A stretch of DNA of 64,000 nt from a virus. Where the stretch lies: positions 1 to 64,000 of the IMG/VR virus record IMGVR_UViG_3300045594_000099. One strand, 5' to 3'. Every line of letters begins with the position of its first letter. The first letter of the stretch is position 1. A program made the position numbers and the translations under genes. Shown here in pieces: positions 2,727 to 31,483 of the stretch. The notes beneath the pieces were generated by a model. It did not search any database. It was not told where the DNA came from and worked only from the letters and a program-made list of their open reading frames with translations.

Positions 2727-3680
2727 ATGACCGTTAAGTCTCGCTCTAAGAAATTCGAAGTGAATGACTCTCGCTTTCCGAATGAGCATATCAAGAATAG
2801 AAGCAATGTCGTCAATGATTTGACCGCTATTGATGTCAATCTAAGATACATGCCGACATGGGAAGAAGCTAAAGCTTTTCTTCCAGATGCTATCATGTCA
2901 ACATGGGCTGCTAAGTCAGATGAGTATGACTTCACTGAGCATCAGAAAGATGCTCTTATGTATAGAGCACTACGAAAGAAGTTCCTGCCTCAATATCTAG
3001 AATTCGTTAACGTAGTGTTTTCTGTCGATGGAATGACAGCACACGATCTTTCGCACACACTTCGAAACAGGAATGCTTCTTTCGCAGTAGAATGCACAGG
3101 AGACAATTACAAGAATCGCAATGATGTTTCTATGCCAGAAGCCTATAATGAGCTTGGCTTATCGCATGAGTATGAAGCACTTGCTACACTTCAAATGGAT
3201 CTGTATGCTAAAGCAATCAATTCTGGCATGAGCGTGCAAGATGCAAGACTTATCTTGCCAAGAGGCATCCATCAGTTCGTAATGCTTCGTATGACTTTAG
3301 GCAATGCATTGGGGCTGATCACGCAAAGAATTGACACCCAGATCCAGCCGCGTTCAGATAATGTCTTTGCTCTTCAGCTTGCAGTCGCTATGTGCAAGAA
3401 ATGGCCCTTGCTTGCAACTCTTATCGATTTTGATGACACTAACTGGTACTATGTCAAAGAGACTACGACTAATTTTGCTTCTAGATTCTTCAAGCCACTT
3501 CCGCAAAATGACAAGTTTGAGAATGATGACATTGAATTCAAATTCGATGCAGATCCTCTGCATATCCCAGGTCAGAAGACATTCATCAAGTTGCTGAATA
3601 AGTATAAAGATGAATTGCTAGCAATCAGAAAGCAAGCAGAAGCAGATTATCCATGGGTTTTCGATGAGGACTATCGCTGA
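2727..3680 (+). CDS. thyX: Divergent ThyX-like (flavin-dependent thymidylate synthase fold) protein
   Basis: VVFSVDGMTAHDLSHTLRNRNASFAVECTGDNY aligns to the ThyX motif RHRxxSxxxxSxRY with H to N, second S to C and R to G; downstream DARLILPRG...MLRMTLGNALGLITQR resembles the ThyX AR-x-LP / N-x-R block. Confidence 0.6.
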   Translation: MTVKSRSKKFEVNDSRFPNEHIKNRSNVVNDLTAIDVNLRYMPTWEEAKAFLPDAIMSTWAAKSDEYDFTEHQKDALMYRALRKKFLPQYLEFVNVVFSVDGMTAHDLSHTLRNRNASFAVECTGDNYKNRNDVSMPEAYNELGLSHEYEALATLQMDLYAKAINSGMSVQDARLILPRGIHQFVMLRMTLGNALGLITQRIDTQIQPRSDNVFALQLAVAMCKKWPLLATLIDFDDTNWYYVKETTTNFASRFFKPLPQNDKFENDDIEFKFDADPLHIPGQKTFIKLLNKYKDELLAIRKQAEADYPWVFDEDYR

Positions 3681-3703
3681 TCTAGCTGTTTGGAGTCTCT
3701 ATC

Positions 3704-5194
3704 ATGGCATATGACAAGGTTAAGAAAGCATGTCTTTCGCATAAGTTTTTAGAGCTTTTCTCTGATGATGATGAAGTGCTGTATGCTATGAAAGAGACGC
3801 CTAAGGCAGTGCTTCTGAAAGGCATTGCAACAGAGTCTTGGGTTCCGAAGTCATGCATATCAGAAGCGAATGCTATCGATTTTGATTCTATGTATTCTTC
3901 TCAGGAGAAGAGCATAAAATTTCCGATCAAGCATGACACAGAACACAAGTATAAGAACGTGCTTGCTTTGCCTTTGTATCAGCATCAGCAAGATGTAGTC
4001 AAAACACTGAAGAATAGCAGACGCTCATATCTTGGCATGGAGATGGGCACAGGAAAGACTGCTTCATCTCTTGCTCATATTGCTATACAGAAGCAGAAGT
4101 ATCCAATACAGATCATATGCGAAAAAGGCCTGATGTCCCAGTGGAAGAGCGAAATACATAAGTTTGCTCCAGACCTAGAAGACAGAGTAAGAATCATAAA
4201 TTACGACAAGATATTTCGAGATTCTTGCAAAGCGTATCTTTCAGAATTGAAGAAGAATCGCTACTTTCTTATACTCGAAGAAGTTTCTTGTCTAGGACAT
4301 ATAGAAGCTAAGAGAACGCAGAAGTCTATAGAGCTAGCTAAGAATGCTTTTGATGTTCAGATGCTTTCAGGCTCTTTCTACGGCGGCAAACTAGAGCAAT
4401 TCTATCCAGTCTTCACTATTCAGGGCTTTACTGGCTCTAAAGAGCAATTTGAAGGCATGTTCACTATAAAGATTCCTAGTGTCAAATCTGTAAGGACTAG
4501 ATATGGATACACTAAAATCAAAGACGAAAGAATTATTGGATATAAGAACATCGATTTGATGCTTAAGAAGTCTTCTGAATCTGGAGCTGTGTATCTTAAG
4601 ACAGAAGACTGCATAGACTTGCCTGAGACAGTCATATCTAGCGTATATGTAGCATTAGACAGGAAAGCAGTGAAGTATGAAGGTGCATTCTACAAGCTGC
4701 AGAGCACTATTGATGACAATGAAAAAAGAGGCATGCTCGCTAAGATAAAGCATATGAATTCTTGCGCAGACAACAAGAACAAGCTTGATGCTATCGAAGC
4801 GCTTCTAAGCAAGTCTTCAGATCGTTTTGTCATAATGTATTCGCTTGTAGATGAATTAGACGCACTTAAGAGAATTTGCAAGAAAGCTAATCGAAAAGTA
4901 TCGGAATGGAATGGATCCGTGAAGAACATGTCTGCTTTTGACAAGTATGACAATTCTGTGATGCTAGTCCAATGGCAGTCTGGTGCAAAAGGGCTGAATC
5001 TTCAGAAAGCAAACAAGATGATATTCACTTCTCCAATACCATCTGATGCTTACATACAAGCAAAGAAGAGAATACACAGGATCGGCCAGAAAAGAAAATG
5101 CTTCTATTGGCTTATCTGCTCTGATGACAGATTCGAAAGAAATAGGTATGAGCAGCTCTTCAAGTCTGAAGAAAGAGTCAATTCTATCGGTTGA
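3704..5194 (+). CDS. SNF2/Rad54-family helicase
   Basis: Motif I LGMEMGTGKT; motif II position LILEEVSCLGH (EE instead of DE); QSGAKGLNLQ; motif VI QAKKRIHRIGQKR. Confidence 0.8.
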   Translation: MAYDKVKKACLSHKFLELFSDDDEVLYAMKETPKAVLLKGIATESWVPKSCISEANAIDFDSMYSSQEKSIKFPIKHDTEHKYKNVLALPLYQHQQDVVKTLKNSRRSYLGMEMGTGKTASSLAHIAIQKQKYPIQIICEKGLMSQWKSEIHKFAPDLEDRVRIINYDKIFRDSCKAYLSELKKNRYFLILEEVSCLGHIEAKRTQKSIELAKNAFDVQMLSGSFYGGKLEQFYPVFTIQGFTGSKEQFEGMFTIKIPSVKSVRTRYGYTKIKDERIIGYKNIDLMLKKSSESGAVYLKTEDCIDLPETVISSVYVALDRKAVKYEGAFYKLQSTIDDNEKRGMLAKIKHMNSCADNKNKLDAIEALLSKSSDRFVIMYSLVDELDALKRICKKANRKVSEWNGSVKNMSAFDKYDNSVMLVQWQSGAKGLNLQKANKMIFTSPIPSDAYIQAKKRIHRIGQKRKCFYWLICSDDRFERNRYEQLFKSEERVNSIG

Positions 5195-5195
5195 T

Positions 5196-5224
5196 TTTAC
5201 ATTGCTAAAAATATGGTATATAAT
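5196..5224 (+). promoter_or_regulatory. Conserved cassette promoter (TTTACA-17-TATAAT)
   Basis: tGATTTTACAttgctaaaaatatggTATATAATATAAc; overlaps the tracked ATG at 5213, so the real start is taken downstream. Confidence 0.7.
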
Positions 5225-5805: not shown

Positions 5806-6498
5806 ATGAAAAGAAAAGACAAAGTCTGCGACATGTCATTATTCAGCATTCAGTCTATAGATGACTGGGATGTAAATGACATCATAGATTATGCTGGGTT
5901 TGATAGTGAGACTTATGCAAAGCTTGATGACGCAGTCATTCCTAAGATGTACAGACTTTTCAACGTATGGCCTTTAGCAGATGCTCAGAAGCTTGTCAGT
6001 GATGTCAAGGAAGAGTATTCTAGGTCGAATCTGAAAGACATCGTAGTAGACAACAGCATCTATATCTCGGAAGAGATTGACATGCTAAGCGTAAGCAAAG
6101 CATTGAGCATCAGCAACAAAGACAAAGTATTCCGAGTAGATGACTTCAATGCAATGAAAGACTTCGATAAGGCTTTGATTAAGAAGCCAAGAACTAACGA
6201 AGAGCTTTATGAAGCAAAATATTCAGCTTTCGATACAATTATGAAAGATTTTGACAATCGAAGGTTTCAGAAGTCTGCAGTAGAAAATCCTAAAGAATCG
6301 TTAGAGTTTGCGATTCACGACTATTTAGAGAATGCAATTTATTGCTACGATGAAGAAGGTCTGTTAGAGATTCGTGGATTGCATCAAGCAGAATACTTCA
6401 TTCGCAAAATTGTTGGCAAAAGGAATTTCTCTGAGAATACATGGAAGATGCTTTCTTTCGCTTATGCAATTGATGAGAGGAAGTATTCGGGTGACTAA
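5806..6498 (+). CDS. Hypothetical protein
   Basis: ATG 5806 (MKRKDKV) preceded by aaaagga; upstream part of tracked ORF overlaps previous gene. Confidence 0.6.
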   Translation: MKRKDKVCDMSLFSIQSIDDWDVNDIIDYAGFDSETYAKLDDAVIPKMYRLFNVWPLADAQKLVSDVKEEYSRSNLKDIVVDNSIYISEEIDMLSVSKALSISNKDKVFRVDDFNAMKDFDKALIKKPRTNEELYEAKYSAFDTIMKDFDNRRFQKSAVENPKESLEFAIHDYLENAIYCYDEEGLLEIRGLHQAEYFIRKIVGKRNFSENTWKMLSFAYAIDERKYSGD

Positions 6499-7345
6499 AG
6501 CTACGCCAAGAGACTACTTCAAGAATCTAGACGCAGTCTACATCAATCTAGATGCAGCTGCAGAAAGACGAGAAGCTATAGAGAATTCTTTTTCGAACAC
6601 TTTCAGAAGTCTAACAAGGGTTGTTCCAATAGACTTCAAAGACAAGTTTGCTGTTGGTGTAGATACTAAGTTGCGGCTTATGGATGCTCTGCAGAACTAT
6701 GATGAAAAAGGCTACTTCAAGCGTTCGAATCAGTATAAGATCGAAGACATCGAAGACTTCAAGAATAGAAAGAATGACTGCAGATTCGTCAATGAAGTCT
6801 GGACACCTGAACAGTATGCTGCACAGGAAAGCCTGTCTCAGACATATAAGAAGATACTAGAAGACTTTCTAGCTAGCAAACTAGAACGTATCATGATTTT
6901 CGAAGACGATGCGCGTGCTAGAGATTTCATGAATCAAGAAATAGACATTCCTGACGATGCAGAGATTTTAGCATGGGGAGGCGCTACATCTTCAGTTCAG
7001 ACAGATGCTAGGCATTTTATGAACGAGCAGCCTTTTCACTTTCTTAGAGTAAGTGGCAAGCGCACAGCATGGTACTGCACTGCTTATGAATTCGCAAGAA
7101 CTGGTGCAGCTAAGCTTCTTGAAGACTTCAATTCTGTTCCAGCTTATACGACAGACACTATTATCAGATACACATTAGACAGAGCTACTGCATATCGTCT
7201 ATCGCCAATGGGCTTCGTTCAGGGCGATTCATCGTATCTAGCTAGAGAAGGCATCAGAATGCCATTGACTAGAGATGAAGCAAAGACATATGATTTCAAA
7301 AATGTAATTGAGCATAAAGCAAAATTGCAAGCAAGCGCAAATTAG
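6491..7345 (+). CDS. Glycosyltransferase family 25-like protein, paralog 1
   Basis: GTG 6491 after gaggaag; AVYINLDAAAERREAIE resembles the GT25 N-terminus (vInL..s.eRr); TPEQYAAQESLSQ and IMIFEDDARA resemble the gEiGC.lSH and ilEDD blocks. Confidence 0.55.
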   Translation: MTKATPRDYFKNLDAVYINLDAAAERREAIENSFSNTFRSLTRVVPIDFKDKFAVGVDTKLRLMDALQNYDEKGYFKRSNQYKIEDIEDFKNRKNDCRFVNEVWTPEQYAAQESLSQTYKKILEDFLASKLERIMIFEDDARARDFMNQEIDIPDDAEILAWGGATSSVQTDARHFMNEQPFHFLRVSGKRTAWYCTAYEFARTGAAKLLEDFNSVPAYTTDTIIRYTLDRATAYRLSPMGFVQGDSSYLAREGIRMPLTRDEAKTYDFKNVIEHKAKLQASAN

Positions 7346-7358
7346 AAAGAACAATTTC

Positions 7359-8216
7359 ATGGTTGTTATGAAGCCAAGAGACTACTTCAAGACAATCGAC
7401 GCAGTCTACATCAATCTAGATGCAGCCAAAGAAAGACGAGCCTCTATAGAACATGATTTTGGCAATGCATTCAGAAGTCTTACAAGAGTAGAGCCTGTTC
7501 ATTTCGATGACATGCGTTCAGCTGGCGTAGATGCGAAGATGCGGCTAATCGAATCAGCTGAAAGCTACGATGAAAAAGGCTACTTCAAATGTTCAGAGCA
7601 GTACAAGAAGATAAGTGCCGATCGTTTCAAGAAGCGAAAGAGTGGCAGCGTTCACGCTAATTCAGTCTGGACACCTGAACAGTATGCTGCGCAGGAAAGC
7701 CTGTCTCAGACATCTAGAAAGATCTTGCAAGCTTTTCTTAGCACTTCGTTGAATAAGCTTATGATTCTTGAAGACGATGCGCGTGCTAGAAATTTCATGA
7801 ATCAAGAAATTGACATCCCAGATGCAGACATTTTAGTGTGGGGTGGAGCAGTAACATCTGCACAATCTGATGCGAATAGATTCGCTAAGAACACTTCGTT
7901 CTGGTTTTCTAAAATTGATGGAAAGCATAATGCTTGGTATACGACAGCTTATGAAGTTTCCAGAGCTGGAGCAAGCAAGCTTCTTGAAGAGTATAATTCT
8001 CGTCCTGCTTACACAACAGATACAGTATGGCGATATGCTTTTGATGAAGTGAATGCTTACCATCTTATACCAATGGGATTTGTTCAGGGAGCGTCATCAT
8101 ATTTAGCTGACTCCGGCGTAGCAATGCCTTTGACTAGAGATGAAGCTGCAGCATATTGCTTCAAAGACATAACACATCGGACTAAAATTGTACAAAAGAA
8201 CAAAGTGGTTATATAA
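7359..8216 (+). CDS. Glycosyltransferase family 25-like protein, paralog 2 (tandem duplicate)
   Basis: About 60% identical by eye to 6491..7345 along its whole length; a near-identical 45-nt DNA stretch gtctggacacctgaacagtatgctgc.caggaaagcctgtctcagaca occurs in both. Confidence 0.55.
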   Translation: MVVMKPRDYFKTIDAVYINLDAAKERRASIEHDFGNAFRSLTRVEPVHFDDMRSAGVDAKMRLIESAESYDEKGYFKCSEQYKKISADRFKKRKSGSVHANSVWTPEQYAAQESLSQTSRKILQAFLSTSLNKLMILEDDARARNFMNQEIDIPDADILVWGGAVTSAQSDANRFAKNTSFWFSKIDGKHNAWYTTAYEVSRAGASKLLEEYNSRPAYTTDTVWRYAFDEVNAYHLIPMGFVQGASSYLADSGVAMPLTRDEAAAYCFKDITHRTKIVQKNKVVI

Positions 8217-8279: not shown

Positions 8280-8753
8280 ATGATTCCATACATTGAACTG
8301 ATTGGTCCAGACAGGTCTGGAAAGTCAACTATACTCAATTGTTTCAGAAAACGTCTTGAAAAAGACAAATTCTCTTTTGAGTTCATTCAAGACAGAGGCA
8401 TTGCAGATAGCGTTGTTCTTGATGCTTATTTCAATAGAACTAATGAAGATGTTCTTGATGAAAGACTAGCTTTTCTTGAATCTGCAAAACAGCATTACGA
8501 AATCATCTATGTGCATTCTAGCGCACCAATTCTTCAAAATAGAGTAGATGAAGAATTTGACAAAACTGATGCAGAAGACAGTTTCATGAATAAAGTCAAA
8601 GTTGATTCTAGCAAGCAATTAGAGCTTTACGACTTCTATTATGGCGTGTTCAAGTCTTTCATGCCATTTGTTTTTGAATATGATACTTCTTTGCATTCTA
8701 CCGATTTCATTGTAGACGAATTGCTTAAGAATAGAAAAGAAAGGGATTTGTAG
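8280..8753 (+). CDS. Deoxynucleoside monophosphate kinase (thymidylate-kinase-like P-loop)
   Basis: IELIGPDRSGKSTIL Walker A near N-terminus; QDRGIADSVV resembles the Tmk DR..S motif; 157 aa. Confidence 0.6.
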   Translation: MIPYIELIGPDRSGKSTILNCFRKRLEKDKFSFEFIQDRGIADSVVLDAYFNRTNEDVLDERLAFLESAKQHYEIIYVHSSAPILQNRVDEEFDKTDAEDSFMNKVKVDSSKQLELYDFYYGVFKSFMPFVFEYDTSLHSTDFIVDELLKNRKERDL

Positions 8754-11700
8754 ATGTCATACATTGGACTTCATCAGCATCTTGATTCTTCATGTTTGGA
8801 TGGTTTTCAGACTCGTCAAGAACTTGTATCAAGAGCAAAAAGTCTTGGCATGAATGCTGTAGCTATAACAGATCATGGAACTTGTGCAATTCATGTCAAG
8901 TTTGCGCAAGAATGTGCTAAGCAGTCAGATGACAATCTTACGATCAAGCCGATATTCGGTATGGAGTCATATCTTGTAGACGATGTTCATGATATCATGA
9001 CAGACAGGATAGCTCATACTAGAGCTGGAAAGGTCAAATACAATAAAGAGACTGGCGAACCTGAATTAGAGAAGCAAAGAGCTTCAGACTTCAATCATTG
9101 TTGCTTATGGGCTCAGAATGACAAGGGCTTGGAGAATCTTTGGACTGTGTCAACTCTTTCGTATACAGAAGGGTTCTACAGAAAGCCACGTATTGACTTC
9201 AATATGCTTAAGACGTATGGCGAAGGCTTGTTCGTATCAGATGGCTGCATGCTTTCTAGGGTGTCAAGATGCATAGCTAATGATGATATCAAAGGTGCTA
9301 TTGCATGGGAGAAGAAGCTTATTGATGCTGTTGGCAAAGAAAATGTTCTTGTAGAGATTCATACATGGCAGTTCTGCGATCCAAAGACTGAAGAGCAGTT
9401 CAATCTAAATAGCATAATGACGAAGACTAATAAAGTCAAGATTGAGATTGCTAAAGAGCTTGGTCTTAGAACTATAGCAGTCAATGATGCTCATTATGCA
9501 AAAAGAGAAGATTATCGTTGGCATGAGCTTGTATGGCAGTCAACTACAGGAAAAGGTAGCGATCTGAATGATGACAAGACTAGTGGACGTGGAGAGACAG
9601 CTGCTTGGGTCATGTCTGAAGATGAATGCTTCTATTGGCTAAAGAAGCATGGTCTTGATGATGAAGACATTCAGACAGCTATAGACAATACTCAATGGGT
9701 TGCAGATCATTGCAATGCGAAAATCAAGTTCGGCATGGTTCCACCGCGATATGGTGACTCTAAGGAAGACGATGACAGGTTGCTTGAAAAGCTTGTCTTA
9801 GAGGGTGCTAGGGAAAGAATTCCTTCTGTAGATCAAGCTCAAGAATATATGGCAGAGCTTAAGAAAGAGCTTGAGCTTATAGAGAAGACAGACTTGTCAG
9901 GATACTTCCTTATTGTCTGGGATTATGTCAACTTTGTCTTGTCAGATGATGAAGATGGCTCTAAGTATGGAATTGTAGGCAAGAAAGCTTCGTTGCTAGG
10001 TGTAGCACGTGGTTCAAGTGGAGCTTCAGTAGTATGCTACTTCTTGAGAATTACGAATATTGATCCGATAAAGAACAGTCTGTATTTCGAACGTTTTCTT
10101 ACAGCAGGACGTGTTGTATCGTCTGTCAACATCAAGTTTGAAGATGGATGGAAGAAATTCTCACCATCTGAAAAGATATCTCTATCTGATGGCACAAGTA
10201 AAGATGCATGGAAGCTTTTGTATGAAGAAGATGATACAGAATATGGGAAAGAGATAGATTCAAGCTTCGACTTCAAAGACTGCCCAGATATCGATCTCGA
10301 TTTTGAAGCTTCAGTCATTCCACAAGTAGATGCATATCTTAAGAAACGCTGGGGCGAATGGAATGTATGCAGAATCGGTACTGAACTACAAGGCAAGATA
10401 TCGACTTCGGTCCACGATGTATTCGCTATCCATGGATACTCTTCTTCAGACATATTCAATCTGAATCGGAAGATTGCTGCAACAGGCTGGGATACTGGTG
10501 AATACATGGAGCTTCAGACTTATGAAGATTTCATAGAATGCATATCTAAAGATGAAGACCTCAAGAAGATAGTAGATGAGACAGAATACTTCAAAGAGGC
10601 ATGGAATTTCGGTGGAAGAATCAGGACATATGGCGTGCATGCATCAGGCTATGTGATATCTAAGAAGTCATTGCTTGGCAAGATGCCGCTTCGTGTTGCA
10701 CAAGGCATTTTAGTGACTCAATTCTCTCATGATCAGGTTGCAAGCATGGGATTCATAAAGTATGATGTTCTCAAGCTTTCTTCACTTGGGACAATACGCG
10801 AAGTATATGAGAATGTACACGGCAAACTTGATCCCGAATCGATATATGCCGATATGCAGAATGACAAGCTATTCGATGGCGCTGCTATATGGAAGCCGAC
10901 ATGGGATGGAGATGTCTTGGGCATATTCCAGCTAGATACTCCATTAGGCAAGACTACTGCAACGAATGCTATAGTCAATTCAGTATCTGATGCAGGCATG
11001 ATTACAGCTGTTGATCGACCAGGTCTAGTACGAAGTGGACTAATCAAAGACTTCTACAAGGTCAGAAAAGGCGAAGAGGGATGTCCAAGCTACCATCCAT
11101 TCACAGATTCTATTCTTGAAGAGACTTCTGGCTTTGTCGTATATCAGGAGCAGATCATGAAGATCTACTCTAGGCTATGCAACATGAATATGGAGGAAGC
11201 AGACAATGTAAGGAAAGTTTTCTCTAAGAAGCAAGTCACTAAAGTGCCTGCAATGAAGAAGTTGCTTTATGATGTATGTCTTAATGACAAGAACTTCATA
11301 GACAGTGTTCCTGTGAAGTATTCATCTCCTAAAGAATGTCTTGACGATCTATGGGTTGGAATATCAAGAACAGCAGAATATTCATTCAACAAATCGCATT
11401 GCCTTGATGGTCACACTTTAGTAAAGCTAGATACTGGTGAATGCATATATATGTCTGAGTTATTCAAAAGATATGAATCTGGTGAAGAGCTGAAGATAAT
11501 GTCTATGATGCCAGATGGAAAGATAGCTTCTGCAAAAATTCATGAAGTAATGAAGTCTGGAATCAAAGAGTTGCTTACGATAACTCTTGCAAATGGAGCA
11601 CTTATTCGAGCAACTCCAGAGCATAGGTTCTTGACTACTAGAGGTTATGTCGCTGTGAAAGACTTTCGCGATGATGAGGAGCTTATATTCGATAGTAAGC

Positions 11701-22090: not shown

Positions 22091-22522
22091 TTGAGTAAGA
22101 ACAACAAAGACTTTCTAAGTAAGAAAGCTTCGCAATTTGATTGGGAAGATGTCCTCAATTCGCAAATGGCATTGCAATCTGCTTATCGTGTAGATTTGAA
22201 TGCTAAAGGCAAAGACAAATGCCGTCTGATAAAAGACATGGCTTTCTCATGCGAATCAGAACTTCATGAAATGTTGCAATGCGTTTCATGGAGAGACTGG
22301 TCTGATAGCGATGACATAGATGAAGATGGCGTAAAAGAAGAATTACGAGACTCTTTCCAATTCTTTGTCAACCTTATGCTCATAATGAAAATGTCGCCTG
22401 AAGAGCTATTTGAAAGAATCAAGTCCAAGCAGAATAAGAATTGGGACAGAATTTCTTCTAATTACAGTGAGCATATCAATTCTAAGGATTCTGATGGATC
22501 AGACTATAGTAATGCAATCTGA
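22091..22522 (+). CDS. All-alpha NTP pyrophosphohydrolase (dimeric dUTPase / MazG-like)
   Basis: aaagga-6 nt-TTG start; CESELHEMLQCVSWRDW...EELRDSFQFFVNLML matches the E..E...wK.W....EL.D..fF pattern of dUTPase_2/MazG folds. Confidence 0.45.
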   Translation: MSKNNKDFLSKKASQFDWEDVLNSQMALQSAYRVDLNAKGKDKCRLIKDMAFSCESELHEMLQCVSWRDWSDSDDIDEDGVKEELRDSFQFFVNLMLIMKMSPEELFERIKSKQNKNWDRISSNYSEHINSKDSDGSDYSNAI

Positions 22523-23304: not shown

Positions 23305-24597
23305 ATGGAAGAAGCAACTAAATTAGAAGACATGGCTGTCTACTTGATGACAGATCTGACTTCATTGAAGAGAATGTACTCTCTTGGTCTTAGAGAGAGT
23401 TATTTCGAAGAGATTCAGAACAAGAAAGCATTTGCATTCTCTGTAGAATACTGGCAAGGATCGAATCTTAAGAAAGCGCCTACTTGTAGTCTGCTTGAAA
23501 AGGAAGTCCCAAGTCTTCATGTGAAATCGACAGACGTATCTGCAACATACATTGTAGAAGCTCTTAAGAAACGGCTTATATCAAACAGGATGAAAAGAGC
23601 TTTGCTGGATTCAGCAGACTCTTTGAAAGAGCATCCAAAAGAAGCACTAGAAATTCTGTCTAATCAGCTATGGTCTATTTCGAAGCAAGCTAAAGACAGA
23701 AAGAATGTTTCAGAACTGTATGATACTGTAGAAAGTCGAAAAGAAAGATATCATAAACGCTCAGAAATGTCTAAGAATGGCATAATGGGCGCATCTATTG
23801 GTTTTCCTGAAATCGATCAAGTCACTATGGGTCTTGCAAATGGAGAGCTATGTACAATAGCAGCACCTACTAAGACTGGTAAGACTTGGATTGGTCTAAA
23901 GATTGTTGCAGAAGCTATGAAAGCTAAGAAGAGAGCAGTCTTCTTCACGCTTGAGCTTTCTGTAGCAGATATAGAAGATAGACTTGACGCTATTCTATCA
24001 GGTGTCTCATATGCAAGGCTTTCTACAGGTACTTTGTCTTCTATAGAAGTCGGAAAGCTGTCAAAGATTCAGCAGTCGTACGATTCATATGGACAAGTGC
24101 TGATTTCTAAGCCACGAATAGGTGAAAGAACAGTTCCAGACATGATGAAAGTAATACGAGATTTTGATGCGGAGTTAGTAGTCATAGATCAGCTTTCATT
24201 CATGGAAGCATCGAATCCTGGAACATCAAAGACAGAGAACGCATCTAGAATAATCGATGAGCTTAAGATGTCGGTATCTGAAGACGAAGACAGCATGATT
24301 CCAGTCTACTTGCTTTCTCAGATGAATAGAGCTGCATCTTTTACTGAAAATGGAAGAGGAAAGCTTACAAATATAGCTCTTACATCAAATATAGAGAATG
24401 CTTCTGATCTGATAATCGGTCTTGGTGCTACAAAAGAGCAAAGAATCAACAATACAATGGTCGTAGAAATCTTGGGTTCAAGAAGAACAAGTATGCGATC
24501 GTGGCTAATATATCGAAATCTTCAAGATAAGACAGACTTCCACGTCATAAAAGAAATGACTGACGATGAAGACGCAAGTGAAGAGGGAGAATCGTGA
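23305..24597 (+). CDS. dnaB: DnaB-family replicative helicase
   Basis: GFPEIDQVTMGLANGELCTIAAPTKTGKTWIGLKI; Walker B VVIDQLSFM; LLSQMNRA. Confidence 0.85.
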   Translation: MEEATKLEDMAVYLMTDLTSLKRMYSLGLRESYFEEIQNKKAFAFSVEYWQGSNLKKAPTCSLLEKEVPSLHVKSTDVSATYIVEALKKRLISNRMKRALLDSADSLKEHPKEALEILSNQLWSISKQAKDRKNVSELYDTVESRKERYHKRSEMSKNGIMGASIGFPEIDQVTMGLANGELCTIAAPTKTGKTWIGLKIVAEAMKAKKRAVFFTLELSVADIEDRLDAILSGVSYARLSTGTLSSIEVGKLSKIQQSYDSYGQVLISKPRIGERTVPDMMKVIRDFDAELVVIDQLSFMEASNPGTSKTENASRIIDELKMSVSEDEDSMIPVYLLSQMNRAASFTENGRGKLTNIALTSNIENASDLIIGLGATKEQRINNTMVVEILGSRRTSMRSWLIYRNLQDKTDFHVIKEMTDDEDASEEGES

Positions 24598-25643
24598 TGC
24601 AGTATGTTTCTGGAAGAGGACTTAGAATTGCTTTTGTAACGCATAAAGGCAATCTGAATGGAAGTCTGACATGGTTCAATTCTATGAAGGAGATAGAGTT
24701 TTTGAAGCAAGTATTCAAGGGCTCTGTGGTTGATGGCGTAAGCATGAAGCCAGATGCTAAAGATTTCAATACTACATTCAAGCAGGCGTCTAAAAGACGT
24801 TATGACCTGATCGTCATGAACATTCAGAAGAAGTATGCTTCTGAAAGAACGCATGCTGGCTTCAAAATGATGAATGACTTCATCAAGCAATCTGAAGCGC
24901 CTGTGCTAGCGCTTATAGATGATGTAGTGATAGCAGAATCGCCATCTACGAACATGTCCTCTTTCGACAACAAGATGGCAGTGCTAGGAATGAAGATAGA
25001 CAGCAAGAAGCTAAAAGACGCTGGATATCATAATGTCGTCATCTCAAACAGAATCAAAGGCATGTCTGTCATGCTGAAGTCAGATAGACGTTTCATGACT
25101 TCTGCTAAGCCTGTAGACTTCGCTTACATTGGAATGCTTCGCAACAAGAGACTTAGATTAGTAGTAGATGCTTTCAATGCTCTTTCGAAAGCAGGATATT
25201 CATGCAAATTCTATGGAGCTGATGCTATCTATGACATGGATTCGGAAGAATCTTCTAGCATTCTAGATTATGTTGAGTTTGAAGTGCTTGACAAAGTTGA
25301 TGCTGACAAAGTAGTGGACGTCATGTCTGAAGCTAGATACTCCATTCTTCCAAGATACGATTATGGAAAAGACATACTCTCAAATAGGATATACGAAGAT
25401 GATTCTGCTAATTGCTTGATGCTAGTTGATGAGCAATATGGCCTGCATGACTTGTTCGATAAAGAAGTGCGATATCAGAATGACAAGGATCTGATAGCTT
25501 TAGTCAAGCTGTTCGATGATCATCCAGAACTGCAGTCGTACATGCTTGACCAGCAGCATGTTAGCGTAGATAGAGAATATCATGCTTCCAGAGCAGAGCT
25601 AGAGCAAGCTTTGATAGATTCTGTAAAAGAGCTTCTGCGATGA
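24594..25643 (+). CDS. T4 beta-glucosyltransferase-like protein (candidate DNA hydroxymethyl-pyrimidine glycosyltransferase)
   Basis: 349 aa versus 351 aa for T4 Bgt as I remember it. Collinear blocks by eye: RIAFVTHKGNL / KIAIINMGNNV; YDLIVMN / YDRLIVVN; DFAYIGMLRNKRLR..CKFYG / DVIYGGSFRSGQRE..IEFFG; LSNRIYEDDSANCLMLVDEQYG / ITLRVWETMASDAVMLIDEEFD. Confidence 0.5.
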   Translation: MMQYVSGRGLRIAFVTHKGNLNGSLTWFNSMKEIEFLKQVFKGSVVDGVSMKPDAKDFNTTFKQASKRRYDLIVMNIQKKYASERTHAGFKMMNDFIKQSEAPVLALIDDVVIAESPSTNMSSFDNKMAVLGMKIDSKKLKDAGYHNVVISNRIKGMSVMLKSDRRFMTSAKPVDFAYIGMLRNKRLRLVVDAFNALSKAGYSCKFYGADAIYDMDSEESSSILDYVEFEVLDKVDADKVVDVMSEARYSILPRYDYGKDILSNRIYEDDSANCLMLVDEQYGLHDLFDKEVRYQNDKDLIALVKLFDDHPELQSYMLDQQHVSVDREYHASRAELEQALIDSVKELLR

Positions 25644-26683: not shown

Positions 26684-26691
26684 TACTCGAT

Positions 26692-26749: not shown

Positions 26750-27688
26750 ATGTCAACTACGTTAAAAGATCTGCAAGCATTTATAGACGACAATCTTGAT
26801 AAAGTAATTCATAGAGGAATAGATTGCAAATATACTGACGACAAGCTGCAATTCAAAGACGATGAAAATCTGTACGATATTTCGCCTGTTGCAATATCAG
26901 AACTTTCTGCTATTCTGCATTTGCCAAACAAGTATATAGAATCTATCCCTTCAGATTTGCGTACGATGAACATCATGTATTTCCTGATGCGTTTCGAAGG
27001 CAATCTTACATTCTCTATCTCAGGCAATGCGATTTCAGAAGTCATTGAATCAGATAACATTCGTCCTGTCGACAGCATCATTTCAGAGCTTTCAGAAGTG
27101 TTTGATGCAAATGAAGTCAATGTCATTCAACCAGAGATTGACAACAAGCACATCTCAATGTGGATTTATTTTGCAGACGAAGTTGCTACTTCTAAGTTCG
27201 GTGCATTCAATCAAGGCTACAATCTTTATATTGGAACAGACAAGAAAGATTCTGTGTATTGCAATCCTATTCTTGTCAATCCACTTGAAGAAACAGCTAT
27301 TGAAGTATTGGTCGATGACGATGATGAAGTAGACAATTCGTCTATAACAGAAAAAATTGAATACGTCATGTTATTCAAGAATGTCTTTGATGCGCTTAAT
27401 CTAGCTTCTGAAAATAGAATAGAAGACATCAATGTATTCTTCAATATCATGTCTTCCGGTTTTCGTATGACTTCTAAAGCTAAGAAAGCTGTACTAGAAG
27501 AATTGCAATTGTCAGATGCTTCTACTATATCTGATGCAATAAAAGCTTCATTGTCTGCAGAGACTAGAATGAAGAAGCTTTCAGATGTCAAGTCTATCGC
27601 TACATTCATAGGAAAGTATTCTGAATTCAAGAACCCGAAATTCTGCTCTGAATGCGGACAGCCGATCATTGAGGATGTGAATCTTTGA
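26750..27688 (+). CDS. Hypothetical protein, possibly DUF932-like, with C-terminal zinc ribbon
   Basis: ISPVAISELSAILHLPNKYIESIPSDL resembles the DUF932 a..QL...lgiP..Y block; C-terminal FCSECGQPI. Confidence 0.35.
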   Translation: MSTTLKDLQAFIDDNLDKVIHRGIDCKYTDDKLQFKDDENLYDISPVAISELSAILHLPNKYIESIPSDLRTMNIMYFLMRFEGNLTFSISGNAISEVIESDNIRPVDSIISELSEVFDANEVNVIQPEIDNKHISMWIYFADEVATSKFGAFNQGYNLYIGTDKKDSVYCNPILVNPLEETAIEVLVDDDDEVDNSSITEKIEYVMLFKNVFDALNLASENRIEDINVFFNIMSSGFRMTSKAKKAVLEELQLSDASTISDAIKASLSAETRMKKLSDVKSIATFIGKYSEFKNPKFCSECGQPIIEDVNL

Positions 27689-28686
27689 AGCTAGCAATAC
27701 TGATTACAGAGAAAGACTCAGAAGCATCGCTTGTCAATATCGTCAATGATGCTATGCATGTCAACAACGCTAAGACATTCGTAGTAGATGACGGGTCAAG
27801 AATTCCAATTTCTATAGAAGGCAATAGCAAGCTAGCAGTTTTCAGACACGATAAGAACATTGGCTATGGAGCAGAAATGAACTTTCTGCTTGATTGCATA
27901 AAGTATGACGATTTCGATTATGTCATGTTTGCAGAAGCAGATGACAGAATAGACTATGTCAATCTAAACAAAGTCTTGCAAAAAGTCAGCAACTTGCCAT
28001 GCTACTATGACATGATCAAGTGCTCGTATTACAAGAGACAGACACCAGAAAGTGAGTTTTGCATTCCAGAATCTGAATTAGCTTTCTATGAAGATGGTCT
28101 TCTGAAGAACAAAGACATTCCTATGATGTTAGATCATCATAATGCTATCTGGTCTATTCTTTATTCTTCTGCATTTATAGAGAATCATAGTTTTGTAGAG
28201 GCTAAAGGTGCTGGATGGGTAGACATACCTTTTGCGTATGATACTTTGCTAGATGCTGATGCTGTATACAGAATTGCAACACCAATCTACAAGTATACAT
28301 TGCATAACGTCACTAATTCATCAGATGTTTTCGATGCATCTACTCCATTTGCAAGATTGCTAGATGTTCAGAAGATTTTGTTTGATGAAGGCATAGACAA
28401 CATTCCTGTAGAAGTTCTATGGTGCTATATTCATCAAATTCTGAAAATGATAGATCTTTGCTTCTATAACAAACGAAAGCTTTCTGAATATCAAACCAAC
28501 AGATTTGCTATCTATCAATGCATGAACTTCATATACAGCATCATGAATGACAGATCATTTGCTAGCATATTGCGTGTCTTCAAGAATGACAGAAGTCTTC
28601 TTGACAGTGTATCTTCAGAGCAGATAGCTATTTTAGACGATTTCAACAAGAACGGCAATATAGACAAATGGATAAGCAGTCTTTAA
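27685..28686 (+). CDS. Glycosyltransferase family 2 (soluble)
   Basis: LAILITEKDSEASLVNIV...TFVVDDGSRIP (GT-A DDGS); FAEADD (DxD-like); TTG start overlapping previous stop. Confidence 0.65.
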   Translation: MKLAILITEKDSEASLVNIVNDAMHVNNAKTFVVDDGSRIPISIEGNSKLAVFRHDKNIGYGAEMNFLLDCIKYDDFDYVMFAEADDRIDYVNLNKVLQKVSNLPCYYDMIKCSYYKRQTPESEFCIPESELAFYEDGLLKNKDIPMMLDHHNAIWSILYSSAFIENHSFVEAKGAGWVDIPFAYDTLLDADAVYRIATPIYKYTLHNVTNSSDVFDASTPFARLLDVQKILFDEGIDNIPVEVLWCYIHQILKMIDLCFYNKRKLSEYQTNRFAIYQCMNFIYSIMNDRSFASILRVFKNDRSLLDSVSSEQIAILDDFNKNGNIDKWISSL

Positions 28687-29201: not shown

Positions 29202-29240
29202 ATAAATATAAAGATAAATCAATCAATGAAAGGAAAAGCA

Positions 29241-29873: not shown

Positions 29874-29876
29874 GTC

Positions 29877-30425
29877 TTGCTTCTGTCAGATACTTCTATC
29901 AAAAGAATCAATGCTATTGAGCCATTCAATGAAGACAATTTGCAAGCAGCGTCATATGATTTGACATTAAGCGACGTATTCATTGTTACAGATGCAGAAA
30001 TATTATGTCCTGGAGATGCAAGTCTTACAAGGAAATGCTATTCTACTAAATTAGTAACGCATCAGTACAAGCTCATGCCAAACGAATTCATCTTGTCATC
30101 TACTATTGAGAAAGTAAGCATTCCCAATAACATCGGAGCAAGATTCGAAGGCAAATCGTCTCTTGGCCGCATCGGCCTAGCTACGCATATAACTGCTGGC
30201 TTCATTGACCCTGGCTTTGAAGGCAATATCACTCTTGAGATAAAGAATGAAGCATCGTATCCAATACTTCTCACTTGTGGGATGAAGATAGGACAGATAT
30301 GCTTCTACTATATGGATGAAGCTAGTTCTGAACCGTATGGAAGCACTAGCAAGTCGCATTATCAAAATCAGTTTTCAGCAACTAGTTCGTGGTACGTATC
30401 TAGTTTTACAAAGCAGCATAAGTAA
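29877..30425 (+). CDS. dcd: dCTP deaminase (Dcd family)
   Basis: MLLSDTSIKR..IEPFNEDNLQAASYDLTL; EGKSSLGRIGLATHITAGFIDPGFEGNITLEIKN. Confidence 0.9.
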   Translation: MLLSDTSIKRINAIEPFNEDNLQAASYDLTLSDVFIVTDAEILCPGDASLTRKCYSTKLVTHQYKLMPNEFILSSTIEKVSIPNNIGARFEGKSSLGRIGLATHITAGFIDPGFEGNITLEIKNEASYPILLTCGMKIGQICFYYMDEASSEPYGSTSKSHYQNQFSATSSWYVSSFTKQHK

Positions 30426-30470
30426 TATATAATTATATTAAATAGTTTTATTATGAATATGGAGAATAAT

Positions 30471-30944
30471 ATGAAGGTCTCAGAGGAATTCAGACAAGCT
30501 ATTGATAAGCCAGAAGGCAATATCAGAGTATATTTTGCTAATTCGTGGTTCAATGAAAATAAAGCAAAAGCTTCTGATTTAGGTTTCGATGTTCTAAAGA
30601 AGTTCGATGTGGAAGTATTCAATCCGCGTTTTGATTCTCCACAAATTGGAAAGAATCCAACAGAAGCTGAACGACAAGCTAATTTCGATGCAAATCTTTC
30701 TGCTATGCGAAGTTCAGATGTTCTTATCGCTTCTACAGAAGGACTTGATTCTGGCACTATCTGGGAATGCGGCTATGGTTCTGCTTTAGGAATTCCAACA
30801 TTTGGTTTTGCACCATTGCTTCCAGAAGGTGTGCCATTCAATCTAATGCTTGCACAATCTATGAAGCATATCTTCCTTTCAAGCGAAGCTCTTGCTTCTT
30901 ATCTTAAAGATGGCAAAGAGCCTGACAGGATTGGTGCTTGCTAA
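30471..30944 (+). CDS. Nucleoside 2-deoxyribosyltransferase-family protein (NDT / Rcl-like)
   Basis: RVYFANSWFNENKA (Y.AG..F motif) and LDSGTIWECGYGSALGIPTFGF (D.GT..E.G.A); start at ATG 30471 after ggagaataat, tracked ORF opens at 30453. Confidence 0.75.
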   Translation: MKVSEEFRQAIDKPEGNIRVYFANSWFNENKAKASDLGFDVLKKFDVEVFNPRFDSPQIGKNPTEAERQANFDANLSAMRSSDVLIASTEGLDSGTIWECGYGSALGIPTFGFAPLLPEGVPFNLMLAQSMKHIFLSSEALASYLKDGKEPDRIGAC

Positions 30945-31483
30945 TGTTGACTGATGAAGACATTGTAGATTCAGTAATCGATGCTGCGAATGAGATTAGT
31001 GGACAAGCTTATGTAGTCAGATACAATGGAAAGCCAACTTTGCATAGGCAGAATCTTTATGAGCATCATGGATCTGTAGCTCAGTTGCTGCTGTTGCTAT
31101 TCAAAGTCTATGATGTTCCAGAATTCGAGCAATTGAATGCTTTGAAACGTGCTTTGACGCATGATTTGCCAGAGATATGGCTTGCTGACATCCCATTCAA
31201 CACTCATGTAGACAATCCGCATTTTTCTGAAGCATATGACTATTCTGAGCAGAAGATACTGAATAGCAAGCTAGAAAAGTTCGACTATTCAGTATCCAAG
31301 TATGGCAGAGTGTGGCATTTAGTGAAAGCAGCAGATTGCTTAGATGTAGTCCTGTTCTGCAAGCAAGAGTTCAATCTTGGCAACAAGTCAGATACAGTCA
31401 TGTCTATGTATAAGCAGGATGTAGAGCTAGCTGCAAAGCATTTAAGAGAATTGGATAGCAATTATGCAAGATTTGAAAAGTAA
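30938..31483 (+). CDS. HD-domain 5'-deoxynucleotidase (YfbR-like)
   Basis: RQNLYEHHGSVAQLLLLL ... ALKRALTHDLPEIWLADIP parallels YfbR E-H-s..vA ... HDasE..tGDlP. Confidence 0.7.
   Translation: MLMLTDEDIVDSVIDAANEISGQAYVVRYNGKPTLHRQNLYEHHGSVAQLLLLLFKVYDVPEFEQLNALKRALTHDLPEIWLADIPFNTHVDNPHFSEAYDYSEQKILNSKLEKFDYSVSKYGRVWHLVKAADCLDVVLFCKQEFNLGNKSDTVMSMYKQDVELAAKHLRELDSNYARFEK

Follow-up and report, generated by a model that had tools for sequence, protein, structure and literature searches.

A plausible route to sugar-modified DNA in an uncultured phage encoding a remodelled ThyX-fold protein and a distant homologue of T4 DNA beta-glucosyltransferase

Described systems and the phage genome

Phages of the SPO1 type carry sugar-free 5-hydroxymethyluracil (hmU) in their DNA. 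In T4, beta-gt lies beside gene 42 and replisome genes, and the only known acceptor of its product, BGT, is 5-hydroxymethylcytosine (hmC). The DNA of Bacillus phage SP-15 contains glucosylated dihydroxypentyl-uracil, a hypermodified thymine, and the ThyX-fold protein gp130 of this phage was hypothesised, but never demonstrated, to be a hydroxymethyl-dUMP (hmdUMP) synthase (PMC5977210). The gene for the divergent gp130 adjoins an NDT gene, no ThyA is reported for SP-15, and a YfbR-like HD gene lies between helicase and primase.

The window analysed here (64,000 nucleotides) represents ~60% of the roughly 108-kb genome of a myovirus with a Gram-positive (Firmicutes-type) host and a base composition of about 60% A+T. 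Like SP-15, it combines a divergent ThyX-fold protein with NDT and HD. Between helicase and primase lies a gene resembling that of BGT (hereafter Bgt-like). A sequence-only reading had proposed that this phage glycosylates its DNA after a C5 modification by a ThyX-fold enzyme. Every ORF that it named is present where it had been placed, but its view that such an enzyme would be undescribed does not hold, since a hydroxymethyl-dUMP synthase of this fold was already proposed for gp130 (PMC5977210). The source is an uncultured phage; Geobacillus phage GR1 is a culturable relative.

Glycosyltransferase-like genes

24594..25643, plus strand: Bgt-like, distant homologue of T4 DNA beta-glucosyltransferase (profile against PDB, hhalign, global alignment, synteny)
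6374..7345 (start likely near 6491), plus strand: GT25-like putative glycosyltransferase, paralogue 1 (PF01755 E 5.9e-4, below cutoff)
7308..8216 (start likely near 7359), plus strand: GT25-like putative glycosyltransferase, paralogue 2 (PF01755 E 7.2e-4, below cutoff)
26750..27688, plus strand: conserved protein between primase and GT2, putative glycosylation partner
27685..28686, plus strand: soluble GT2-like glycosyltransferase, marginal (PF00535 23.6 bits, cutoff 23.3; NF007482 E 4.5e-7)

The Bgt-like gene is flanked by those for DnaB helicase (23305-24597) and DnaG primase (25640-26557) and thus, like beta-gt of T4, lies among replication genes. When its family profile was compared with the PDB, T4 BGT (1bgt) was the sole significant match (E 8.4e-6) and no other GT-B structure scored. 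Comparison with T4 BGT by hhalign gave 80% (E 1.3e-5, 293 columns), against 10.6% for a control GT-B protein of phage GR1, and a global alignment of the two proteins was colinear from end to end (z=8.9). D110, R183, R186, R265 and E268 align with D100, R191, R195, R269 and E272 of BGT, so that BGT's catalytic base (D100) and its UDP-binding residues are all conserved. In L007, a relative with 44% identity, the order DnaB-Bgt-primase-X-GT2 is kept. The proposed relationship to BGT is therefore correct at the profile level. As to the DNA-glucosyltransferase fold, the profile points to T4 BGT only, whereas Foldseek returned just generic GT-B matches with a poor model (pLDDT 55); Pfam yielded nothing beyond the equally generic Glyco_trans_1_2.

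The two adjacent GT25-like paralogues are 62% identical and belong to a family with an invariant EDD, 6 of whose 10 members match GT25; one homologue of paralogue 2 carries the JGI label GR25-family glycosyltransferase. Their description as a tandem pair stands, while their assignment to GT25 is tentative, the Pfam matches (E about 6e-4) being below cutoff. Likewise, the soluble GT2 passes its Pfam cutoff, but barely. L007 has a GT2 gene at the equivalent position and, in the place of 26750..27688, a gene resembling it in position and length (307 aa). The protein encoded by 26750..27688 has no Pfam or PHROG match and may work together with the glycosylation genes. Envelope functions are typical of both GT25 and GT2, and a further glycosyltransferase at 41570-42997, outside the range noted initially, is a membrane polysaccharide synthase (GT2); other glycosyltransferases of the phage may therefore also serve non-DNA targets.

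A ThyX-fold protein in a recurrent phage operon

2727..3680, plus strand: ThyXL, ThyX-fold flavoenzyme-like protein (Pfam Thy1, AF2 model, Foldseek, residue table)
8280..8753, plus strand: small thymidylate-kinase-like P-loop kinase with weak TMK similarity, abutting the polymerase gene
8754..13424, plus strand: DnaE-type (Pol III alpha) replicative polymerase with intein (Pfam PHP, DNA_pol3_alpha, finger, HHH_6, Intein_splicing)
30453..30944, plus strand: NDT/Rcl-family nucleoside 2-deoxyribosyltransferase, first of the NDT-HD pair (PF05014 E 2e-16)
30938..31483, plus strand: YfbR-like HD 5'-deoxynucleotidase or dNTPase, overlapping the NDT stop codon (PF12917 E 9e-14)
38376..38861, plus strand: DUF6378 protein (PF19905 E 7.8e-28)

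ThyXL matches Pfam Thy1 with 37.9 bits (cutoff 24.8), and its AF2 model (pLDDT 95) resembles solved ThyX/PolB structures with a TMt, the Foldseek TM-score normalised to the target, of about 0.63-0.77. The protein falls below the NCBIfam thyX equivalog threshold (TIGR02170, 25.9 bits versus a cutoff of 87.9). Its motif reads RNRNAS in place of RHRxxS (RHR to RNR), and C-T-G-D replaces SxRY in the catalytic loop, with loss of R90 and Y91. Across the 47 closest clade representatives this loop is C-[TS]-G-D, the S88 column being Cys in 38 and the Y91 column Asp in 42, and Q75 is changed to His in 46. True ThyX conserves S88, R90 and Y91, and mutants at these positions transfer methylene more slowly, up to >100-fold for Y91A (PMC8316439). 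The clade is phage-exclusive, with next to no cellular occurrence: 185,579 species genomes contained two matches, both on MAG contigs. These profile and residue data uphold the suggested ThyX fold with a degenerate active-site motif and support the conclusion that ThyXL is not an ordinary, dTMP-forming ThyX.

On the other hand, ThyXL retains R78, R147 and R174, i.e. the arginine that activates dUMP (R174) and those for phosphate and FAD, and may therefore simply be a divergent dTMP synthase. It is the sole thymidylate synthase (TS)-like gene found in the phage: tblastn gave no ThyA-type match in the window, in ~20 kb of flanking sequence on related contigs or in ~13.7 kb more of a near-identical 108-kb contig, which bears out the predicted lack of a ThyA-type hydroxymethylase in all but some 15 kb of the ~108-kb genome. 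In one relative (L024), a divergent ThyA-like gene occurs in addition to that of ThyXL and could be the modifying enzyme there, leaving ThyXL as the TS.

ThyXL belongs to a recurrent phage operon of often overlapping genes, NDT-HD-(DUF6378)-ThyXL-(kinase)-polymerase, in which NDT and HD accompany ThyXL in 17 of 25 loci and the DUF6378 family stands between HD and ThyXL in seven related ones (L022, L025-L029, L032). The polymerase is the end gene of the ThyXL-kinase-polymerase module and occurs in L004 as a version without intein (1165 aa). The small kinase has no Pfam match and is weakly similar to thymidylate kinase (E 0.18), but hhalign links it (94%, E 1e-7) to a small P-loop family of other phages whose genes come directly after or lie near ThyXL in 10 further loci. 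Of the claimed dNMP kinase before the polymerase, position and P-loop homology are thus confirmed, while its family remains tentative. The NDT and HD families named earlier (the former placed at 30471) were both recovered; the catalytic Glu of the NDT aligns to that of the NDT structure 6evs (E 4.7e-6), and in PHROG the HD gene matches 'dATP triphosphohydrolase' (E 3.8e-17).

Could this operon serve an ordinary nucleotide economy with canonical DNA? ThyXL would then be a true, if divergent, flavin-dependent thymidylate synthase and the small kinase would phosphorylate dTMP; NDT and HD would salvage deoxynucleosides from degraded host DNA and rebalance them towards thymidine, and the glycosyltransferases would have their targets in the host envelope or among the proteins of the virion. 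The A+T-rich genome, the lack of another TS-like gene, the three retained arginines, the typical envelope families GT25 and GT2 and the membrane synthase at 41570 all fit this reading, as does the family profile, whose 569 library representatives (E<=1e-3) grade continuously from canonical ThyX into the ThyXL clade. Moreover, an atypical ThyX adjoins DnaE in PB1-like Pseudomonas phages, for which we are not aware of any account of DNA modification. However, 24594 resembles T4 BGT specifically, over its full length and within a conserved helicase-primase operon, R90 and Y91, both lost in ThyXL, are important for ThyX turnover, the clade is virtually non-cellular, and a dNMP phosphatase with NDT/Rcl in a dTMP-synthase operon would seem pointless if their target were not another nucleotide. 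We consider this explanation somewhat unlikely.

Less likely still is that the Bgt-like protein glycosylates DNA while ThyXL is a plain thymidylate synthase, the acceptor hydroxyl coming from an unrecognised enzyme, e.g. a divergent thymine or 5mC dioxygenase, or the sugar being attached at another position. The BGT homology agrees with this, published work documents phage-encoded TET-type and T-dioxygenases whose action is followed by glycosylation, many of the ORFs in 2.7-31.5 kb match neither Pfam nor PHROG, and about 15 kb of the genome lie outside the sequence covered; but a Tet_JBP or 2OG-Fe(II) domain was absent from all ORFs scanned, and both the remodelled loop and the HD/NDT/kinase operon would be left unexplained.

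The ThyXL clade also occurs in many phages without a recognisable glycosyltransferase nearby; in GR1-like phages a GT-B glycosyltransferase is located within the operon. ThyXL might thus make hmdUMP or a different C5 adduct, which would take the place of T without a sugar, as in SPO1, with the glycosyltransferases acting off DNA. Against the BGT homology and replisome position of the Bgt-like gene, we regard this as improbable.

Nucleotide pools and a proposed pathway

29877..30425, plus strand: dCTP deaminase Dcd, dCTP to dUTP (PF22769 E 1.8e-36; TIGR02274 145 bits, cutoff 92.8)
49480..49920, plus strand: trimeric dUTPase Dut, dUTP to dUMP (PF00692 E 1.4e-30)
58937..59338, minus strand: dCMP deaminase, dCMP to dUMP (PF00383 E 3.6e-10)
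22091..22522, plus strand: all-alpha dimeric-dUTPase/MazG-like NTP pyrophosphatase (PF08761, dUTPase_2, E 5.7e-07)

Clear Pfam matches corroborate the three enzymes said to feed dUMP and the second, all-alpha dUTPase. The latter is dUTPase/NTP pyrophosphohydrolase in PHROG, lies upstream of DnaC-DnaB-Bgt-like also in L007, and could serve to remove a canonical dNTP (dUTP or dTTP). A phage of ~60% A+T would also require exactly this set, a dUMP funnel, a TS-like enzyme and a TMK-like kinase, to make plain dTTP.

An Asn-to-Asp switch converts ThyA into a dCMP enzyme, and the invariant Asp in the pyrimidine-contacting loop of ThyXL recalls it. By this analogy ThyXL might act on dCMP, giving 5-methyl- or 5-hydroxymethylcytosine as in XP-12 or T4, and the Bgt-like protein would glucosylate hmC, BGT's only known acceptor. 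Yet C nucleotides are destroyed twice, by dCTP and dCMP deaminases that send them to dUMP, and a dCMP-using enzyme would therefore be starved; a dCTPase of the T4 gp56 type was not identified with certainty. This makes a dCMP route very improbable.

Two results strengthen the hypothesis of sugar-modified DNA: the BGT homology and the phage-only, remodelled ThyXL in a recurrent operon. Given a BGT homologue and a virus-only ThyXL with its own kinase, the phage may build sugar-decorated, thymine-replacing DNA by a ThyX-type route, a reading that we put forward tentatively and that, judged from sequence, is plausible. In such a pathway, deoxypyrimidines would be converted to dUMP by Dcd, Dut and dCMP deaminase, and ThyXL would take the methylene carbon from CH2-THF and place it on C5, where the exocyclic methylene intermediate would be hydrated, whereas ordinary ThyX reduces it; the product would not be a methyl compound but, in the simplest case, 5-hydroxymethyl-dUMP. 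Phosphorylation of this product to the triphosphate would fall to the small kinase together with the host's NDP kinase, and the phage polymerase would incorporate it, while HD, NDT and the all-alpha pyrophosphatase would exclude dTMP/dTTP (or dUTP). After replication, the Bgt-like protein would flip the base out and glycosylate the hydroxymethyl group, yielding a base-J-like sugar-hmU, which the two GT25-like proteins and soluble GT2 might extend by further sugars. If true, this phage would possess a sugar-bearing thymine replacement made through a ThyX-fold rather than a ThyA-type enzyme.

A divergent ThyX-fold protein of a phage-exclusive clade

The sequence-only reading had proposed a glycosylated 5-hydroxymethyl-pyrimidine DNA, made with a ThyX-fold protein, a Bgt-like glycosyltransferase and a set of nucleotide-pool enzymes. 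All open reading frames that it named exist, each with family support of graded strength. The central genes, by position in the window and with a DUF6378 gene added to those it named, are:

2727-3680 (+), ThyX-fold protein (ThyXL, a name also used for its clade)
6374-7345 and 7308-8216, two GT25-like proteins (GT25L)
8280-8753, small kinase
8754-13424 (+), DnaE-type polymerase with intein
22091-22522, all-alpha dUTPase_2
24594-25643 (+), Bgt-like protein, between DnaB helicase and DnaG primase
27685-28686, GT2 glycosyltransferase
30453-30944, NDT
30938-31483, YfbR-like HD protein
38376-38861, DUF6378 protein

In Foldseek, an AF2 model of ThyXL (pLDDT 95) found its best PDB matches in PolB UMP/dUMP methylase and in ThyX from M. 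tuberculosis and from T. maritima, with probability 1.00 and TMt ~0.63-0.77 against 4p5b, 2af6 and 1o26. The ThyX fold of the modelled protein is therefore certain, and the degenerate motif noticed earlier is also present: RHRxxS reads RNRNAS in the window, and members of the subclade differ at its second and third positions. An ordinary ThyX, the outcome named beforehand as speaking against the proposal, was not what we found. ThyXL scores 25.9 bits against the TIGR02170 thyX equivalog, under the cutoff of 87.9, while passing the Pfam superfamily model (37.9 vs 24.8), and its SxRY loop is lost. An exhaustive profile search retrieved 569 representatives, of which 44 had E below 1e-30, in a continuum towards canonical ThyX. 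The clade itself is essentially phage-only, with two MAG contigs, both of Firmicutes, as its only matches among 185,579 species genomes and Geobacillus phage GR1 (OK896991; host G. stearothermophilus ATCC 10149) as its only cultured phage.

Residues were numbered by alignment to a T. maritima ThyX sequence, the numbering of which reproduces the published residues. Among the 47 closest clade members, all but one (46/47) have His in place of Q75. Their version of the catalytic loop Ser88-x-Arg90-Tyr91 is C-[TS]-G-D: 38 have Cys where S88 aligns and 42 have Asp in the Y91 column. In the window protein the loop reads C-T-G-D, with Cys123 and Asp126. R78, R147 and R174 are kept and nearly invariant in the same 47 members, corresponding to R113, R174 and R201 of the window protein, which also carries an additional C-terminal region of ~90 aa. 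[quoted passage not shown] Since the three arginines are kept and the R90/Y91 loop is lost, ThyXL has probably retained binding of a uridine-type nucleotide and of flavin, and the region of its site that deals with the carbon being transferred has probably been rebuilt. The protein thus resembles canonical ThyX (T. maritima, M. tuberculosis, PBCV-1) and PolB in fold, in R78/R147/R174 and probably in being flavin-bound, but differs in RNR for RHR, in His for Q75, in C-T-G-D for S88-x-R90-Y91 and in its restriction to phages.

A recurrent gene module and the phage that carries it

Homologues of the window NDT and HD proteins are encoded within 10 kb of ThyXL in 17 of the 25 viral loci carrying clade members, usually in the order NDT-HD-ThyXL with abutting or overlapping reading frames. 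A DUF6378 gene lies between HD and ThyXL in seven loci, and a small P-loop protein and DnaE polymerase directly follow ThyXL in several. The operon NDT-HD-(DUF6378)-ThyX-like-(small P-loop kinase)-DnaE/PolA was found in uncultured phages (L021, L024, L030, L025-L029, L032 and L015) and in GR1 (L008), and our literature searches yielded no description of it as a unit. Two examples are:

L030, 8963-14110, NDT-HD-ThyXL-P-loop-DnaE
L008 (GR1), 23909-34341, NDT-thioredoxin-HD-GT-B glycosyltransferase-x-P-loop-RNase HI-nitroreductase-ThyXL-x-x-DnaE

In GR1 and its relatives, the module also takes in a GT-B glycosyltransferase of 465 aa and a flavin reductase of the nitroreductase type. A literature search found no paper on GR1, which appears to be an unstudied, culturable candidate for modified DNA. 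Elsewhere (40057-41289), GR1 encodes an amidoligase and a gamma-glutamylcyclotransferase.

In the window, ThyXL ... GT25L-GT25L-kinase-DnaE stands in one place and Dcd-NDT-HD in another. The window kinase is homologous to the ThyXL-linked P-loop family (hhalign 94%, E 1e-7) and the DUF6378 gene is also present, so that the window holds the same module parts, more widely spread. One uncultured relative (L024, 9134-10340) combines NDT-NDT-HD-ThyXL-DnaE with dCMP deaminase and, next after the deaminase, a divergent ThyA-like protein of 247 aa that retains the catalytic Cys and is equally similar to thymidylate synthase (TS) and to the CMP hydroxymethylase MilA. This phage therefore has two different C5 enzymes, which shows that they are not redundant there and leaves it ambiguous which of them could be the modifying one. 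An atypical ThyX is also found in the PB1-like phages: that of Pseudomonas phage crassa (Pbunavirus; L044, 3001-3918) is a 305-aa protein with a C-terminal extension, RTR for RHR and the loop TSRA. It is encoded just upstream of a DnaE-type polymerase, and ThyX-DnaE linkage therefore reaches beyond the ThyXL clade.

The window has ~40% G+C and codes almost wholly on the + strand. Its left half encodes an NAD-dependent ligase, an SNF2 helicase, the intein-bearing polymerase, a FEN-type (5'-3') exonuclease, RecA-like, DnaC-like, DnaB and DnaG proteins and nucleotide metabolism enzymes, and its right half structural genes leading into baseplate genes. No phage in GenBank is a near relative, and 50,697 phage records, searched with both nucleotide and protein sequences, contained none; the polymerase matched best, at 31% identity, DnaE-like polymerases of actinophages, and the kinase and Bgt-like genes (the latter by tblastn) had no match in these records. 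Near-identical metagenomic contigs do exist, one of 108,378 bp with a polymerase lacking the intein, which in the window comprises ~390 aa (~aa 894-1273; Pfam Intein_splicing). In the 108-kb JGI contig L004 the polymerase is intein-free (1165 aa) even though the ThyX-like protein is 100% identical to ours, indicating recent intein gain or loss. Some ~17 kb more, scanned along the 108-kb IMG/VR contig IMGVR_UViG_3300044557_000185, gave no family matches save a portal-like protein, and PADLOC defence models returned nothing relevant. A GH25/CW_7/LysM lysin in a relative of 47% identity, together with the Firmicutes origin of the MAG matches of the clade, makes a Gram-positive host probable.

Further genes of the window and of the flanks of two related contigs (L004 and L006), where TnpB/IS605 OrfB (Cas12f-like) genes occur and, in L006, a TnsA-like endonuclease-domain gene follows baseplate J, are:

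window 14617-15357 (+), 246-aa protein with a weak C2H2 zinc-finger match, after the FEN-type exonuclease gene
window 17151-17225 (+), single tRNA-Arg (anticodon TCT), in the gap between exonuclease and recombination genes
window 31464-31925 (+), small HTH/NUMOD1 protein directly after the HD gene, which may be a homing-endonuclease remnant
L004 821-2107 (-), TnpB/IS605 OrfB mobile-element gene in the structural region
L006 8560-9831 (+) and 3847-5070 (+), mobile-element genes in the structural region (TnpB/IS605 OrfB and TnsA-like)

A distant relative of T4 beta-glucosyltransferase and the supporting enzymes

The T4 Bgt-like call at 24594 was borne out at the level of family profiles. As a single sequence (hmmscan, E<=0.01) the protein matched only PF13524 Glyco_trans_1_2 and not the curated model for T4 glucosyltransferases, and it had no match in the PDB. 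Its family is very small: 5.8 billion proteins yielded three homologues. When the resulting four-sequence profile was searched against the PDB with hmmsearch, it matched exactly one structural family, T4 DNA beta-glucosyltransferase (BGT; 1bgt, E 8.4e-6), and none of the hundreds of other GT-B structures scored. Using hhalign, alignment to the T4 b-gt product (NC_000866) reached 80% probability (E 1.3e-5; 293 columns, 43-344 vs 34-349) and spanned both Rossmann-like domains, compared with 10.6% for the GT-B glycosyltransferase of GR1 as control, and end-to-end global alignment of the 348-aa with the 351-aa T4 protein scored 8.9 SD above 300 shuffles. The residues with established structural roles in BGT, the catalytic base D100 and the UDP-binding R191, R195, R269 and E272, align to D110, R183, R186, R265 and E268 of the window protein, all invariant in the four-member family. 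An AF2 model built from only these four sequences (pLDDT 54.8) retrieved only generic GT-B enzymes in Foldseek (TM ~0.3).

BGT (CAZy GT63) and the window protein are thus alike in length, in colinear alignment from end to end, in the catalytic Asp and the UDP-binding Arg/Arg/Arg/Glu set, and in the embedding of the gene among replisome genes, but share only ~20% identity, and the window protein matches no Pfam family but the generic one. A relative whose Bgt-like protein is only 44% identical has the same gene order, dUTPase_2-DnaC-DnaB-Bgt-like-primase-X-GT2. We conclude that the window protein truly belongs to the BGT family, as a very distant member, and that it is expressed together with the replisome; DNA is therefore its most likely substrate.

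The other glycosyltransferases were supported less evenly. The GT2 at 27685 has its family match, albeit a marginal one. The supposed GT25-like genes are tandem paralogues (62% identical) with an invariant EDD, whereas PF01755 stayed sub-threshold (~20 bits each, cutoff 24), being weakly matched by 6 of 10 homologues, and the PDB gave no match. Two genes had escaped the sequence-only reading. At 41570-42997 (+) lies a 475-aa GT2 (PF00535, E 1.3e-14); its QRRKW-type motif and several transmembrane helices at the C terminus make it look like a processive membrane polysaccharide synthase. It is followed (43019-43486, +) by a pentapeptide-repeat protein of 155 aa (E 1.3e-30), the fold of which is known to mimic DNA. 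Possible roles of the pair are host-surface remodelling or superinfection exclusion and anti-restriction. The membrane GT2 favours the main rival reading, in which the pool enzymes merely supply dTTP for an AT-rich genome and the glycosyltransferases serve other targets. The PB1-like Pseudomonas phages, with their atypical ThyX beside DnaE, point the same way, and we know of no report of modified DNA in them. We regard plain dTTP supply as only slightly less probable than the pathway proposed below.

Among the pool enzymes, family matches were strong for Dcd, trimeric Dut, dCMP deaminase, NDT and the HD protein of YfbR type, and clear for dUTPase_2 and Thy1. The HD nucleotidase, the NDT/Rcl-family protein, the all-alpha pyrophosphatase, Dcd and Dut are candidates for removal of a canonical nucleotide. 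For the proposed dNMP kinase at 8280 we found weak thymidylate-kinase similarity, but neither a Pfam match nor similarity to T4 gp1. The stated absence of a ThyA-type gene held: tblastn detected no ThyA-like match in the window or the related loci L004, L006 and L039, and the Thymidylat_synt Pfam domain was absent from every ORF scanned. A second rival reading, in which the DNA is glycosylated but its hydroxyl group is made by an enzyme that we failed to recognise, seems improbable.

Other kinds of DNA were also considered. Uracil-DNA of the PBS1 type was ruled out by the presence of a TS-like gene and of two dUTPases. A 2-aminoadenine (Z) genome was set aside as well: the HD protein matches a 'dATP triphosphohydrolase' PHROG, but the ORFs scanned contain no PurZ-like adenylosuccinate-synthetase domain. 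Restriction-site avoidance was dropped as a proxy for unmodified DNA. The window has fewer 4-mer palindromes than expected (mean z -3.2; GATC z -8.0, CATG z -9.2), but the T4 (glc-hmC) and SPO1 (hmU) controls show the same depletion, and the measure therefore does not discriminate.

A candidate pathway and its relation to known systems

The pathway that we tentatively propose is one in which ThyXL makes a non-methyl C5 product that is polymerised and then glycosylated on DNA by the Bgt-like enzyme. dCTP, dCMP and dUTP would be converted to dUMP, to the C5 of which ThyXL, with reduced flavin, would carry the methylene of CH2-THF; the exocyclic methylene would then not be reduced and a hydroxymethyl (or other non-methyl) product would be released. 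Chemically this is a small step, and hydroxymethyl-dUMP has reportedly been seen on acid quenching of ThyX reactions. The small kinase would phosphorylate the product, HD, NDT and the all-alpha pyrophosphatase would clear dTMP, dTTP or dUTP, and DnaE would incorporate the analogue. Once it is in DNA, the Bgt-like enzyme would glycosylate it, and the GT25-like and GT2 proteins may lengthen the sugar. Two parts of the original interpretation stand, the homology to BGT and the existence of a non-canonical ThyX-like clade confined to phages; the chemistry is a proposal. Extended to the clade as a whole, with ThyXL not a thymidylate synthase but a nucleotide-level pyrimidine C5 hydroxymethylase or other non-methyl one-carbon transferase in a conserved module and, in this phage, Bgt glycosylation yielding a base-J-like glycosyl-hydroxymethyluracil genome, the proposal is less likely than not.

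The logic of pool rewiring, C5 enzyme, kinase and DNA glycosyltransferase is shared with the T-even hmC-glucose pathway (gp42, gp1 kinase, gp56 dCTPase, alpha/beta-gt). Unlike T4, however, the window belongs to a Firmicutes-type myovirus with a DnaE polymerase, without a ThyA-fold hydroxymethylase and with its pool driven to dUMP rather than dCMP, so that the acceptor would be hmU rather than hmC. The hmU pathways of SPO1, phi-e and SP8 and those of phiW-14, ViI and M6 are closer in this respect, with dCMP deaminase and dUTPase feeding dUMP, a kinase, a one-carbon transferase acting at C5, and a phosphatase or pyrophosphatase that keeps dTMP/dTTP out. To our knowledge, all characterised examples use a ThyA-fold dUMP hydroxymethylase, which we did not find in the window, and the later steps employ 5-HMUDK and aGPT-Pplase in place of a BGT-like enzyme.

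Searched against viral models with Foldseek, the ThyXL model matched the 413-aa 'thymidylate synthetase' gp130 of Bacillus phage SP-15. In SP-15 DNA about half of the thymine is replaced by glucosylated, phosphoglucuronolated dihydroxypentyl-uracil, a sugar-bearing base made at the nucleotide level, as we propose for the window phage. gp130 adjoins the NDT-family gene gp127, gp9 looks like a canonical ThyX, and a YfbR-like HD 5'-nucleotidase (gp90) is encoded between DnaB helicase and primase:

L046 (SP-15) 4325-4987, YfbR-like HD
L047 (SP-15) 1730-4911, NDT-family gene and SDR reductase just upstream of gp130

SP-15 and the window phage thus have in common a Gram-positive host (a probable one for the window phage), dCMP deaminase and the NDT, HD and divergent ThyX-fold triad of families. 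SP-15 differs in its canonical gp9, its UDP-sugar gene cluster, its PolA-type polymerase and its lack of a Bgt-like gene. gp130 shares the fold of the window family (Foldseek E 1e-5) but no sequence similarity (hhalign 0.1%), and SP-15 is therefore a parallel rather than a member. Kropinski et al. described two Thy1-family proteins in SP-15, with no ThyA reported, and hypothesised that gp9 is the TS and gp130 a hydroxymethyl-dUMP synthase (PMC5977210). The earlier claim that a ThyX-fold C5 step is undescribed must be softened accordingly: we found no demonstrated ThyX-type hydroxymethylase in the literature, but the idea had been put forward for gp130 (PMC5977210). The arabinosyl-5-hydroxycytosine clusters of RB69 and DLP3 likewise place two glycosyltransferases and a thymidylate-kinase-like 'nucleotide kinase' near a TS homologue, the DLP3 gp76-gp80 layout paralleling ThyXL ... 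GT25L-GT25L-kinase, but they rely on a ThyA homologue acting on dCMP, GT-B arabinosyltransferases and a UDP-arabinose pathway (PMC13326640). No sugar-nucleotide genes were seen in the window phage sequence. The scheme is best filed as nucleotide-level pyrimidine replacement with DNA glycosylation, which is already known, the new part being a ThyX-fold instead of a ThyA-fold entry enzyme.

A ThyA-fold enzyme stands at the start of every biochemically proven phage route to 5-hydroxymethyl- or 5-hydroxy-pyrimidine DNA that we know of, and this is the marker on which searches of genomes for modified phage DNA are built. If the ThyXL clade were a second, flavin-based entry, hundreds of metagenomic phages labelled 'thymidylate synthase ThyX' would carry unrecognised DNA modifications, and there would be a class of candidates to test for the long-open question of SP-15 base synthesis. 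A Bgt homologue beyond the T-even phages would, if our reading is true, widen DNA glucosylation to Gram-positive hosts, which bears on restriction and CRISPR evasion, sequencing bias and enzyme tools. Should the clade instead prove to be a plain, radically remodelled dTMP synthase working without R90 and Y91, it would still matter for the debated mechanism of ThyX.
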